Shown here one piece after another: positions 5,842 to 25,957 of a stretch of DNA of 64,000 nt; positions within the stretch are counted from its first letter, which is position 1, and each line of letters starts with the position of its first letter. The translations under genes were made by a program, and so were the position numbers. The notes below the pieces were generated by a model, which did no database searches, was not told the origin of the DNA, and saw only the letters and a program-made list of their open reading frames with translations. Source of the stretch: a virus; the IMG/VR virus record IMGVR_UViG_3300050020_000030, positions 1-64,000 of that record; one strand, 5' to 3'.

Positions 5842-6219
5842 ATGTATACACTCAGTTTGGTACACAATACGGCCTTCCCCGAACCGGGAGAATTTTTCAA
5901 CAACACTAAGAATGGCGGGGTTCTAACAATGTCTCGTCTTCGTCGAGAAGTCTTGCGGGCGAGTGTCGAAGGTCTGGAAACTTTCGAGGATAAAAAGTAT
6001 CGGGGCTGGATTCATCCCTATGTCCTGCACGACGTTCTTAATGATGCCTCCTTTAACGGATTAACAGATATTATAGCACGCGGAGAGAAGAAAGACAAAG
6101 CATTTGTATCAATAACTCTTGCGGGAGTTGAGTTTATTTCAACGACAGACGTTCGGGTCTCTACCTTTATCTTCGGTAAAAACTCTGATCCCCTCGATCT
6201 TAAACTTATCTACATCTAA
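5842..6219 (+). CDS. stand-alone fragment homologous to the major capsid protein (putative A-domain)
   Basis: 25/50 ungapped identity to capsid exon 2, including NDASFNGLTDI; AAGGA RBS. Confidence 0.8.
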   Translation: MYTLSLVHNTAFPEPGEFFNNTKNGGVLTMSRLRREVLRASVEGLETFEDKKYRGWIHPYVLHDVLNDASFNGLTDIIARGEKKDKAFVSITLAGVEFISTTDVRVSTFIFGKNSDPLDLKLIYI

Positions 6220-22866: not shown

Positions 22867-23136
22867 ATGGCCTATACTCCCGCAGTAAATACAGTTACCA
22901 GTGGTAACTTTCCTAACGCTTTGGCCGTTTACTATGAGCGTAAAGCAATTCCAAACCTTAAAGCAAGCACTCCGTTTCTGGGGGCAACAAAGCAGTGGCC
23001 TTTGCCGAGGCACTCCGGTAACGTGATTCAGTTCTTCTCCTATAACCTCTTGGGCGCGAATGTCTCTCAGACCACCGAGGGTTTCGTGGGTTCTCCTGTT
23101 CCCGAGAGCGCAGTCAAGATTCAGGCGACAATCGGT
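22867..23136 (+). CDS. major capsid protein (N4-gp56-like), exon 1
   Basis: YYERKA..LPRHSGNVIQF..TEG..ATIG; joins in frame to QYADY. Confidence 0.9.
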
Positions 23137-24052
23137 GAACTTGCTGCTTAACAGCTAACTGGCCGATATAAAATTCCGCTAAATCGGTGAACATCTGTGG
23201 TATAATGGTGTTATGCCAACAGAAAATACCGAGCTAACTCAAATGAAAGATCACACAAAAGCGTATATGGCCGGAGTCCTCGACGGAGACGGTCATCTAG
23301 GAATTCAGAAACACGGGCAGTATAGTCCTAGTATACAGGTTTGTGGTGAGTCTAAATCGCTTATGGAATGGATCGTCCTTAACTTTGGGGGATCAATCCG
23401 CAAAGAAAAAATCAAGAGCGGTAAAGACTTCTACAAATGGATACTCTACGGGAAGAATTCTCAAAAAGATTTCGTAGAAGGTATCACACCTTTTGTGTTC
23501 ATAAAAAGATCACAAGCAGAGATTCTCCAAGAGTTTCTTAATATCAATCGGAGTGACTACGATCCGGAAAAGAGAGAATCTTACTATCTAGCAATTAGGA
23601 AAGCTAGATCATTGAGCAGCGTAGAGACTGACATGCGGAACAAACTAGACAATAAACTGGCTTGCGCTTATGCGGCTGGTCTGGTTGATACAGACGGACA
23701 CATAAATTTATACACGGTTCCCTCGGGAAAGTCTAAAGGTAGCATACGAACAGGAATAGAAATCGTAAATATCTATAGACCTATTCTCGATGAGCTAGCA
23801 AGGCAGTTTGGGGGTCACGTAAGGAAAAGAACAGAAGACGGGTACAAGACTCGGTATCAGTGGTTCGTTACTGATATGAAATCCGAGGAAAAACTCCTTC
23901 TGGCGATGCTCCCTTATATGATTGTGAAGAGAGAAAAAGCAGAAAATCTTCTCAAGCACCTCCGAGAAAGACTTAGTTTGAAGATACAGCCCGAACTCAT
24001 AGGTGACTATGAGAGTGTCCCAGTGGGAACGCTGAAGACCTAAACACGTTTG
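23137..24052 (+). mobile_element. group I intron 1 in capsid gene (916 nt, with LAGLIDADG ORF)
   Basis: Exon ends in U, P1 ATCGGT/GCCGAT; P3 TTCCGC/GCGGAA; P4 TCGGT/ACCGA; R CGTAGAGACTG; S AAGATACAGCC; P9 CTCATAG-GTGA-CTATGAG; ends in G. Confidence 0.92.
23213..24043 (+). CDS. double-motif LAGLIDADG homing endonuclease (intron-encoded)
   Basis: YMAGVLDGDG and YAAGLVDTDG motifs; PF..IK, LPYMIVKRE. Confidence 0.92.
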   Translation: MPTENTELTQMKDHTKAYMAGVLDGDGHLGIQKHGQYSPSIQVCGESKSLMEWIVLNFGGSIRKEKIKSGKDFYKWILYGKNSQKDFVEGITPFVFIKRSQAEILQEFLNINRSDYDPEKRESYYLAIRKARSLSSVETDMRNKLDNKLACAYAAGLVDTDGHINLYTVPSGKSKGSIRTGIEIVNIYRPILDELARQFGGHVRKRTEDGYKTRYQWFVTDMKSEEKLLLAMLPYMIVKREKAENLLKHLRERLSLKIQPELIGDYESVPVGTLKT

Positions 24053-24676
24053 CAATACGCTGATTACACCAATAGCTCTGACCTGTTCTTGGATACGGCG
24101 ATTGACGACAAGGGCGCACTTAGCTCTTTGGCCGAGGAAATGAACTATCGCCTCGCCCTCACCCTGAATCTGTTGGTCTCCACGGCTGCGGATTCTCTGA
24201 ATGGCATCGACGGTTCTGTGAATCAGCAGTTGGCAGTCGGTACCTATCTTACCGCGTCGAACCTGCGTACCATCGCTCAGCAGCTTGAGTCGGTGAACGT
24301 TCGTCCGTTCGAAGCCAACACCTACGCCGGGGTTATCAATCCTCTGGTTGTGCATGATATCTATAATGACGCCAGCTTCAACGGCCTCACGGATATCATG
24401 AAGCGCCAGTCCGATTCTTCGAAGAAGTTGTTCGAAGGTCTGGATCGTGACGCCCCTCTGGAGTTCGCGGGTATTAAGTTCAAGAGCACCACAACCGCAT
24501 CGGCTGTGACCATCTCTTCGAACATTTACTATCCCACGTACATCTTCGGTGACGATGCTCTTCTAAGTATCTTCCTCGGTCCTAATCCGGCTGACAAGAA
24601 CAAGAAGAACTACTCACTGAATATCCAGATGGCTCCCGAAGGCGGCTCGGTCTCCGACCCGGCTCGCTTGATTGGT
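24053..24676 (+). CDS. major capsid protein, exon 2
   Basis: QYADYTNSSDL..YAGVINP..HDI..FAGIKF..YPTYIFG..SDP. Confidence 0.9.
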
Positions 24677-24938
24677 GAACTTGCTGCTTAAGCAGCTAAT
24701 CGGCCAATCTAAAACTCAGCTATATCGGTGAACCTCTCCTAAAATTTTAGGAGACAATACCGAGGGAAGACTAGGGAAAGTACCTAAACCTAGAACCCGT
24801 AACGACTAATACGCTGGGCCTTCGAAAGAAGTGAAGATAGAGTCTGAGCTATACGGCGACGTATAGAGTGTCTCCGGGGTGATCCGGGGGTGGATTAAGT
24901 CCACGATGACCTGAAAAGGCATCTCCAAAACGCAACTG
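24677..24938 (+). mobile_element. group I intron 2 in capsid gene (262 nt, no ORF)
   Basis: P1 GATTGGT/GCCAATC; P3 CTCAGC/GCTGGG; P4 TCGGT/ACCGA; P5 TCTCCTAAA/TTTAGGAGA; R CGTAACGACTA; P8 CTTC-GAAA-GAAG; S AAGATAGAGTC; P9 CTATACG-GCGA-CGTATAG (arms share the flanking G); 3' G at 24938 (alternative 24941). Confidence 0.9.
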
Positions 24939-25034
24939 GGGTGGATTTCATATAACTGTAAGTTCGTGGTCACGCCTCCGCCCGGAGTAGTTATGAGGGC
25001 ACGCAAGCTCCTGAGCCAGACGTCTTCAAGCTAA
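24939..25034 (+). CDS. major capsid protein, exon 3 (missed by ORF track)
   Basis: GWISYNCKFVVTPPPGVVMRARKLLSQTSSS* restores the DP...GW capsid C-terminal motif; total 329 aa. Confidence 0.85.
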   Translation, partial: GWISYNCKFVVTPPPGVVMRARKLLSQTSSS

Positions 25035-25042
25035 ACAAAACA

Positions 25043-25110
25043 AAGGACTTATAGTTTATAGAAAATATTTTCTATAAGTCCTTGACTCAGTGAAGTTTTC
25101 GTGGTATAAT
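25043..25110 (+). promoter_or_regulatory. inverted repeat/palindrome after capsid gene, overlapping a sigma70 promoter
   Basis: AAGGACTTATAG/CTATAAGTCCTT; 22-bp palindrome 25056-25077; TTGACT(25082)-N17-TATAAT(25105). Confidence 0.7.
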
Positions 25111-25204
25111 GTAGTTAGGATCAAACTTCCGGTGTCATGAACCGGAACACCCGAGGGGAGTTAGCTCCTACTTTCTCCCCTCAAAAATTCTTCTAGGAGG
25201 AAGA

Positions 25205-25957
25205 ATGTACGATATTTACGAATATACGAATCTAATTAATAACAAGAAGTATGTCGGGCAGAGTATAGATAAAGATACCCGGAGACGGCAGCACTTATAC
25301 GAGGCTAAAAGGGGTTCTACCTGTCCCTTTCATCGTGCCATAAGAAAATACGGAATAGATAACTTCTCTTTTAGAATTATTGAATCTGTAGATACTCAAA
25401 AAGGCGCTGACGATCAAGAAGACTTTTGGATAAACGAACTAGACACGCGAAGCCGGGATCGAGGATATAATCTCAGGGGTGGGGGGATAGCAGGTCTCTT
25501 AGCTGAAGAGAGTAAGCAAAAAATCAGTAATTCTCTTACTGAGTACTACTCCGATGAAAAGAACCGCGAAACTATTAGGGATTCCTTGAAGAATTACTAT
25601 GAGCAGAACCCGGATCGTGTAGAGAAGATACGGGAGGAGTCCAGAGAGAATATAAAGGAAAGAAAGAGAAATGACTTGGGTCAACTTCTTCCGTCTTCGG
25701 GTGTTCCCGTTCCCGAGAAGACTCCAGAGGAGAAAAAAGCTATTAATAAAAGAAAAAGCGAAATGATGCTTTCCAAGTCTCCCGAAGAAAAGGCTCGGAT
25801 CAGCAAGAAGTTAAGTGATGCCCAGAAAGCCAGATATGCTGCTATGACCCCGGAAGAAAAAGAAGCCTTTTGTAAAAGAAAACGAGAGATTTCAGTTGCA
25901 TATCACGCCAAAAAGAAATCAGGAATCCAATGCACAGTAGCCCAAGAAAATTCGTAA
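25205..25957 (+). CDS. GIY-YIG homing endonuclease with NUMOD-like repeats
   Basis: IYEYTNLINNKKYVGQS..R..H..AIRKYG..GYNLRGGG. Confidence 0.9.
   Translation: MYDIYEYTNLINNKKYVGQSIDKDTRRRQHLYEAKRGSTCPFHRAIRKYGIDNFSFRIIESVDTQKGADDQEDFWINELDTRSRDRGYNLRGGGIAGLLAEESKQKISNSLTEYYSDEKNRETIRDSLKNYYEQNPDRVEKIREESRENIKERKRNDLGQLLPSSGVPVPEKTPEEKKAINKRKSEMMLSKSPEEKARISKKLSDAQKARYAAMTPEEKEAFCKRKREISVAYHAKKKSGIQCTVAQENS

Follow-up and report, generated by a model that had tools for sequence, protein, structure and literature searches.

The major capsid protein gene of a peat virus is interrupted by two group I introns that open with the same five in-frame codons, GAA CTT GCT GCT TAA. The locus thus raises the question of whether the Glu-Leu-Ala-Ala tail, which these codons would add to a capsid fragment translated from unspliced mRNA, is an accident of descent or a signal in its own right. 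The stretch analyzed here, referred to as the window, comprises 64,000 nucleotides (nt) (positions 1 to 64,000 of the IMG/VR record IMGVR_UViG_3300050020_000030) and is part of an 88.6-kb virus contig that recurs across many peat metagenomes. An earlier reading of the window, made without database searches and here called the sequence-only reading, had proposed that the intron carries its own quality-control tag, which sends the products of unspliced pre-mRNA to the protease ClpXP. This proposal is supported by a frame-specific and codon-independent enrichment of Ala-Ala-stop in related capsid genes and by the resemblance of the tails to the tmRNA tags of the likely host class; the degradation itself is what we infer.

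Two capsid introns with the same opening codons

The capsid gene (plus strand, positions 22867 to 25034), whose relatives are labelled 'N4-gp56 family' in the source records, encodes a protein of ~328 amino acids (aa) in three pieces. Exon 1 (22867 to 23136, 90 codons ending in ATIG) was delimited by the open reading frame (ORF) list, by tblastn of intronless homologues and by an RNA contig that joins 23136 to 24053. Exon 2 (24053 to 24676, 208 codons from QYADY to ARLIG) was delimited by the homologues and the same RNA joint, and exon 3 (24939 to 25034, from GWISYNCKF to SSS and the stop) by the intronless homologues. The latter, present in five IMG/VR contigs (L004, L005, L008, L009, and L011), read straight across both junctions, ATIG/QYADY and ARLIG/GWISY, and both insertions therefore lie between codons (phase 0). 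Both introns end in G (24052 and 24938), and their removal restores the capsid ORF as found in the intronless homologues.

Intron 1 (23137 to 24052, 916 nt), which holds an ORF with two LAGLIDADG motifs, was identified by its P1 pairing and its last base, G. Intron 2 (24677 to 24938, 262 nt) contains no ORF and was identified by an Rfam match, the P1 pairing, the terminal G and the junction fixed by the homologues. A contig of the metatranscriptome run X20 passes from 23136 straight to 24053 and lacks exactly 916 nt, whereas contigs of two DNA runs continue through the intron, which demonstrates that intron 1 is spliced in vivo at the predicted sites. An RNA contig also covers positions 24719 to 24923 within intron 2; the RNA contigs do not reach the spliced joint of this intron.

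The 15-mer GAACTTGCTGCTTAA occurs only twice in the window, both times on the plus strand (23137 to 23151 and 24677 to 24691), as the first 15 bases of an intron and immediately behind a complete Gly codon (GGT). Shuffling of the window gave 0.08 expected matches, and two copies were seen in none of 100 shuffles. TAA is the fifth codon of both introns in the frame of the preceding exon, and read-through of unspliced mRNA would yield products of 94 aa (ORF 22867 to 23151) and 302 aa (90 + 208 aa plus the 4-aa tail), both of which end in ELAA, that is, in a nonpolar residue followed by two Ala at a free C terminus. On the identical openings, their phase and the two fragments, the homologue-based junctions and the ORF and exon lengths agree with the sequence-only reading. 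Its statement that the rest of the two introns had diverged was overstated: over their first 61 nt the introns share 85% identity, a level at which a run of 15 identical positions out of 15 has a probability of ~0.09. Taken alone, the identity of the two copies is weak evidence. Across IMG/VR, the exact 15-mer gave 45 matches, all of them chance matches outside any intron context, and the exact sequence is thus not in itself conserved.

The sequence-only reading had also cautioned that the opening bases may be conserved as a small hairpin, GCUG(C)/(G)CAGC, and such a hairpin is indeed predicted within the P1 loop of both introns. In intron 1 it spans positions 23143 to 23155 (GCUG/CAGC, RNAfold of 23128 to 23168) and holds the stop codon in its loop; in intron 2 it spans positions 24683 to 24696 (GCUGC-UUAA-GCAGC) and, in the alignment to the Rfam model, coincides with the first hairpin. 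It is predicted as well in L001, a related locus that carries an ortholog of intron 2.

Ala-Ala ends in related capsid introns

Related capsid loci were gathered without regard to the 5′ ends of their introns, by the R element together with the P3-P4 motif, by exon 2 and by capsid alignment (a degenerate DPARxIGGY pattern retrieved only 5 loci in IMG/VR). The resulting DNA survey comprised 173 capsid loci with 144 distinct exon-insertion junctions. Within 90 nt past the exon, GCN-GCN-stop was found 15 times in the exon frame and not once in either alternative frame. Each of the four Ala codons was used, in the pairs GCT GCT, GCA GCA, GCC GCC, GCG GCG, GCC GCA, GCT GCA, and GCA GCC, and so were the three stops TAA, TAG, and TGA. 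Among tails of at least 2 aa, 14 of 77 in-frame tails ended in Ala-Ala compared with 0 of 217 out-of-frame tails (Fisher p = 2.8 × 10−9, a value inflated by the shared ancestry of intron 5′ modules, which the counts ignore). An RNA motif indifferent to translation would be expected neither to fall in one frame only nor to vary mainly at third positions, and the 15/0/0 pattern therefore implies a constraint on the peptide. Thus, among the capsid relatives, we recovered both the in-frame enrichment of LAA-stop or AA-stop and the synonymous variation for which the sequence-only reading had suggested looking.

The close relatives allowed us to compare the peptide with the hairpin. The L001 ortholog of intron 2 opens with AAA CTC GCT GCT TAA (KLAA-stop) and keeps the hairpin; relative to the window, Glu is replaced by Lys, and CTT is changed synonymously to CTC. 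In six further loci (L066, L086, L093, L105, L132, and L182), an intron of the same family occupies a different capsid site and has a plain P1 loop without the hairpin. The opening of this L066 group, AAA CTA GCA GCA TAA, again spells KLAA, with three third-position changes, all of them synonymous. The sequence-only reading would have given way to relatives that keep the hairpin but change the residues freely; Leu-Ala-Ala was retained both with the hairpin and without it. More broadly, the Ala-Ala-stop lies in the 5′ strand of a hairpin (window, L001, L397), in an open loop (L066, L206, L101), in the 3′ strand of a hairpin (L253) or in the guide sequence (L414), and it is found as deep as 17 codons (L419) and 24 codons (L417) inside the intron.

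A second survey was performed at the protein level, in which intron-stopped capsid gene calls were aligned to full-length capsids, and the nonhomologous C-terminal tails were taken and merged with the DNA set. Tails of zero length were left out of the protein set, as they are indistinguishable from contig ends; the tails whose sequence is known at the protein level only include P0027, P0068, P0082, P0103, P0107, P0119, P0095, P0227, and P0179. Ala-Ala ended 44 of the 220 distinct C termini (20%) versus 2.0% of the ORFs of at least 100 aa from the same loci, an excess of ~10-fold (binomial p = 2 × 10−30, uncorrected for relatedness). LAA ends accounted for 16 of the 220 against a background of 0.74%. 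The Ala-Ala tails were spread over ~22 capsid insertion sites, and the residue at position −3 was Leu in 16 and Lys in 13 of the 44, the rest being Val, Gln, Ile, Tyr, or other residues. Of the ELAA signal put forward by the sequence-only reading, the Ala-Ala pair is thus conserved and Leu is the commonest residue at −3, while Glu is not conserved.

The tails were unevenly distributed along the capsid. None of the 35 junctions in the first 60 codons carried an Ala-Ala tail, compared with 15 of the 109 later junctions (p = 0.02, post hoc), and the share of Ala-Ala at the protein level peaks near the capsid C terminus, at 33%. This bias fits the notion that long, assembly-competent fragments would be the harmful ones.

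Apart from the Ala-Ala class, 23 further tails ended in Val-Ala, and several ended in Ile-Ala or Leu-Ala. The Val-Ala class recurs at capsid sites 248 to 254 and 275 to 277 (e.g., L089, L146, and L062; P0130 and P0225). In these introns, GUA opens the guide sequence, the partner of which is an exon with UAU or UAC at its end, and the Val-Ala tail is thus partly dictated by RNA pairing.

A possible tag for unspliced capsid products

Only one cultured phage has a related capsid (37% identity over 98% of the length); its host is Tunturiibacter psychrotolerans, a member of the class Terriglobia of the Acidobacteriota, which agrees with the peat origin of the contig. Terriglobia are therefore the likely host class. 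A search for the capsid protein in 301 Acidobacteriota genomes yielded only three distant matches (24 to 29% identity) and hence no prophage evidence for the host. The transfer-messenger RNA (tmRNA, ssrA) tags predicted by ARAGORN in 31 Acidobacteriota genomes, nearly all of Terriglobia (L423 to L451, L340, and L341), were 9 to 10 residues long and ended in A[L/Y]AA in 31 of 31 cases; ALAA was found in 20, and the Tyr variant AYAA was frequent, with 11. ClpX was found in 4 of 5 such genomes. Among the capsid tails, P0227 (ending in LALAA) and P0179 (ending in LAYAA) match the last five residues of these tags, and P0132 ends in YAA. Among natural tmRNA tags, lengths down to a bare Ala-Ala are on record (PMC11915505).

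Collectively, these data suggest that the Ala-Ala end, with Leu at −3, is probably maintained by selection at the level of the peptide and mimics the end of the host tmRNA tag, so that truncated capsid protein would be delivered to ClpXP or another AAA+ protease. The proposed course of events would be as follows. The 5′ exon would be translated normally, and a ribosome on unspliced pre-mRNA would terminate at the stop codon just inside the intron; in phage group I introns, normal translation of the 5′ exon and an in-frame stop at this place are the rule (PMC3073962). Termination would free a truncated capsid subunit ending in Ala-Ala preceded by Leu, Lys, Tyr, or another residue, and this chain might be read by ClpXP or a related protease like an ssrA-tagged one. 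Proteolysis would then clear fragments able to cap or distort growing shells. We infer that the tail may act as a degron, that ClpXP may be its reader, and that the truncated capsid protein may be harmful.

A broader proposal, which we favor with less assurance and regard as only somewhat better than an even guess, is that the mobile group I introns of phage structural genes encode, in cis, an imitation of the end of the host tmRNA tag (LALAA or LAYAA in phages of Terriglobia), tuned to the host tag and to the position of the intron. Unspliced products would be destroyed by the proteolysis that accompanies ribosome rescue. Such a tag could make residence in a highly expressed assembly gene less costly and help explain the up to five or six insertions per gene seen in capsid genes of this clade.

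Several observations weigh against peptide-level selection or against its link to the host tag. The two 15-mers of the window are most simply explained as identical by descent. In some introns the Ala-stop is partly dictated by the RNA: GCAUAG serves as the guide sequence in L414, and GCUGC forms one strand of a hairpin in the window, L001, and L397. After Leu, the residue most often found at −3 is Lys (13 of 44), which may alter recognition by ClpX. Many members of the family stop immediately, with T/AA or T/AG across the splice site or with TAA as the first codon, as exemplified by L006 and L007, in which the insertion lies 4 nt past the intron 1 site (IGQ-stop), by L002 and L003 (VY-stop), and by the GVIH site. 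In 59 of 136 related junctions (~40%), the stop falls within 0 to 1 codon and leaves no tag; the tag is frequent but not universal, and a strongly toxic truncated capsid would disfavor such untagged introns. Our assignment of the host derives solely from the 37%-identical capsid. To these points the shared ancestry behind the frame counts must be added; even so, at the DNA level we estimate at least ten independent sequence contexts, and the probability of ten contexts all falling in one frame by chance is still as low as (1/3)^10 = 2 × 10−5.

An account based on descent and RNA structure only would view the two introns as recent paralogues with a young 5′ module comprising the hairpin, the usual ribosome-excluding stop, and a functionless ELAA. 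The 85% identity of the first 61 nt, the hairpin predicted in both introns and L001, the prevalence of in-frame stops inside group I introns (PMC3073962) and the many relatives without an Ala-Ala tail all favor it. Nevertheless, it leaves unaccounted for the 15/0/0 confinement to the exon frame with four Ala codons and three stops, the tails without a hairpin (L066, L206, and L101) or 17 to 24 codons into the intron (L419 and L417), and the 10-fold excess of Ala-Ala. We thus consider this account unlikely.

Slightly less likely still, in our view, is selection of Ala-Ala-stop for translation itself, whereby ribosomes would terminate quickly and cleanly and leave the P1 loop, letting P1 form and splicing proceed. 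C-terminal residues influence the efficiency of termination, and the guide sequence, 12 nt downstream of the stop, would be covered by a terminating ribosome. The splicing of phage introns is also known to be affected by translation that reaches the 5′ splice site and by a stop close to it (PMC3073962 and its references). Yet the natural capsid C termini are TSSS or TSAS rather than Ala-Ala, and introns in which the stop comes immediately do without such a context. The five-residue tag copies LALAA and LAYAA, together with the preference for Leu at −3, indicate a recognition signal, and the lack of Ala-Ala tails in the first 60 codons would not be predicted from termination.

A reader other than ClpXP, such as ClpAP, Lon, FtsH, or a phage factor, or an exclusion of the fragment from procapsids, appears about as improbable as the account based on termination. 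Several proteases recognize ssrA-type ends, and the 23 Val-Ala tails, the several Ile-Ala or Leu-Ala tails, and the common Lys at −3 speak for it, but it is a variant of the explanation that we prefer, as it assumes the same selection on the peptide, and the present data cannot discriminate between the readers.

Elements of the proposed tag have precedents. The in-frame stop and the ssrA end are textbook knowledge, and an intron-encoded degron is known from yeast HAC1 (PMC5114014). In group I introns of phages and bacteria (T4 td among them; PMC3073962), the stop likewise lies in the P1 loop, a few in-frame codons past the 5′ splice site, where it shields the ribozyme core from ribosomes; that review covers the stop only, and the released peptide is not known to have been ascribed a role, whereas in the capsid introns the preceding codons are also constrained and spell Ala-Ala preceded by Leu, Lys, Tyr, or another residue. 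With the tmRNA tag, the capsid tails share a free C-terminal Leu-Ala-Ala (Tyr-Ala-Ala in part of the Terriglobia) on an incomplete protein and a putative role in quality control. They differ in that they are encoded in cis by the intron and made by ordinary translation and termination, not by trans-translation on a nonstop mRNA, and the ELAA tail has only 4 residues and no part for an SspB-type adaptor. Bacterial ribosome-associated quality control by RqcH also marks incomplete nascent chains for ClpXP with C-terminal alanines; these are added without a template on stalled 50S subunits, while those of the capsid tails are templated by the intron. In HAC1, too, an intron-encoded C-terminal tail serves the product of unspliced mRNA, where it acts as a fail-safe degron (PMC5114014). 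The HAC1 intron, however, is a eukaryotic nonconventional one, spliced by Ire1 and tRNA ligase, acts through the ubiquitin-proteasome system and resides in a single regulatory gene, in contrast to a mobile ribozyme in a phage structural gene. A full-text literature search, with most subscription journals outside its reach, found no published account of a tag of this kind in self-splicing introns of phages or bacteria.

If the tails are degrons, such introns would not only splice themselves out but also eliminate the protein that arises from failed splicing, by means of a quality-control signal of the host. This would represent a new way for a selfish element to limit the harm to its host gene, would explain why the capsid genes of this phage group tolerate many introns, and would give the HAC1 intron degron a bacterial counterpart. 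For annotation, it would offer a simple cue, namely an in-frame Ala-Ala-stop just inside an interruption.

Intron anatomy and minor observations

In both introns, a guide sequence located 25 to 26 nt inside the insertion pairs with the last six bases of the exon and places a U·G pair at the splice site. In intron 1, the guide GCCGAU (23162 to 23167) pairs with AUCGGU (23131 to 23136); in intron 2, GCCAAU (24703 to 24708) pairs with AUUGGU (24671 to 24676). The difference between the exons is thus mirrored in the guides, which constitutes a compensatory change between the two introns. The sequence AUCGGUGAAC at the junction of exon 1 and intron 1 (23131 to 23140) is repeated as the 5′ strand of P4 plus J4/5 in both introns (23184 to 23193 and 24727 to 24736), and the guide sequence could therefore alternatively pair with P4.

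The Rfam model Intron_gpI (RF00028) scored intron 2 at 46.3 bits (E value of 4.4 × 10−10), just below the gathering score of 50, and a scan of the window at the gathering threshold accordingly returned no match. A blastn search of intron 2 against cultured phages matched only the generic P7 element. Intron 1 scored only 18.6 bits, because its ORF interrupts the catalytic core. By hand, we located in it an R-like element followed by GCGGAA at positions 23619 to 23640, the latter being P3′, the exact complement of the P3 strand UUCCGC, and an S-like element at approximately 23979 to 23992.

The ORF of intron 1 (23213 to 24043, plus strand) encodes a LAGLIDADG homing endonuclease of 276 aa. It starts in the P5 loop, spans the ribozyme core, and is threaded through P5, P4′, P6, P7, P3′, P8, and P9, with the R-like element and P3′ lying inside the coding sequence; intron 1 nonetheless splices in vivo. 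The gene has its own sigma-70-type promoter, with TGGTATAAT as an extended −10 element in the P5 loop (23196 to 23215), and its ATG lies ~8 nt downstream, which makes the transcript near-leaderless.

Further peculiarities were observed in the introns of the relatives. In the KLAA intron of L066, as well as of L086, L093, and L105, the base before the 3′ exon is A rather than G (CAAACA/ATTATCC). This 3′ junction is backed by a P10-like pairing (AUUAU/AUAAU), and the S element is altered (AAGAGAGAG); the L066 type may represent an intron with omega-A.

Mini-insertions of 32 to 56 nt break the capsid frame at sites 30, 36, 52 to 54, and 297 to 299 of several relatives (L336/L339, L338, L335, L206/L139, L414 [identical to L014], L080, L100, L067, and L411). 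Each shows a P1-like pairing between the exon and an internal guide, with a U·G pair, and ends in G, and its exact removal restores conserved residues. The mini-insertions are far below the size of a group I core; several lie 17 to 31 nt upstream of a full intron, while the one in L335 is isolated. The mini-insertions may be introns that lack a core and are spliced by a neighboring or trans-acting ribozyme. Ribosomal bypassing, as in T4 gene 60, was discarded as their common cause, as the take-off and landing codons match only in L336 (CUG and CUG). In L414/L014, a 10-nt insertion, TTATAATTTG, between DPAR and QIGGW and 30 nt ahead of a normal intron shifts the capsid frame; an assembly error, a frameshift site, or another cause could account for it.

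The phage contig yielded neither a tmRNA nor a tRNA. A GIY-YIG ORF (25205 to 25957) is a free-standing gene that lies beyond a terminator-like hairpin, outside the capsid gene and intron 2, and has its own sigma-70-type promoter upstream (TTGACT and TATAAT with a 17-nt spacer, 25085 to 25113). Finally, positions 5914 to 6186 gave a tblastn match to capsid residues 153 to 259, a stand-alone copy of a capsid segment located far from the structural genes.

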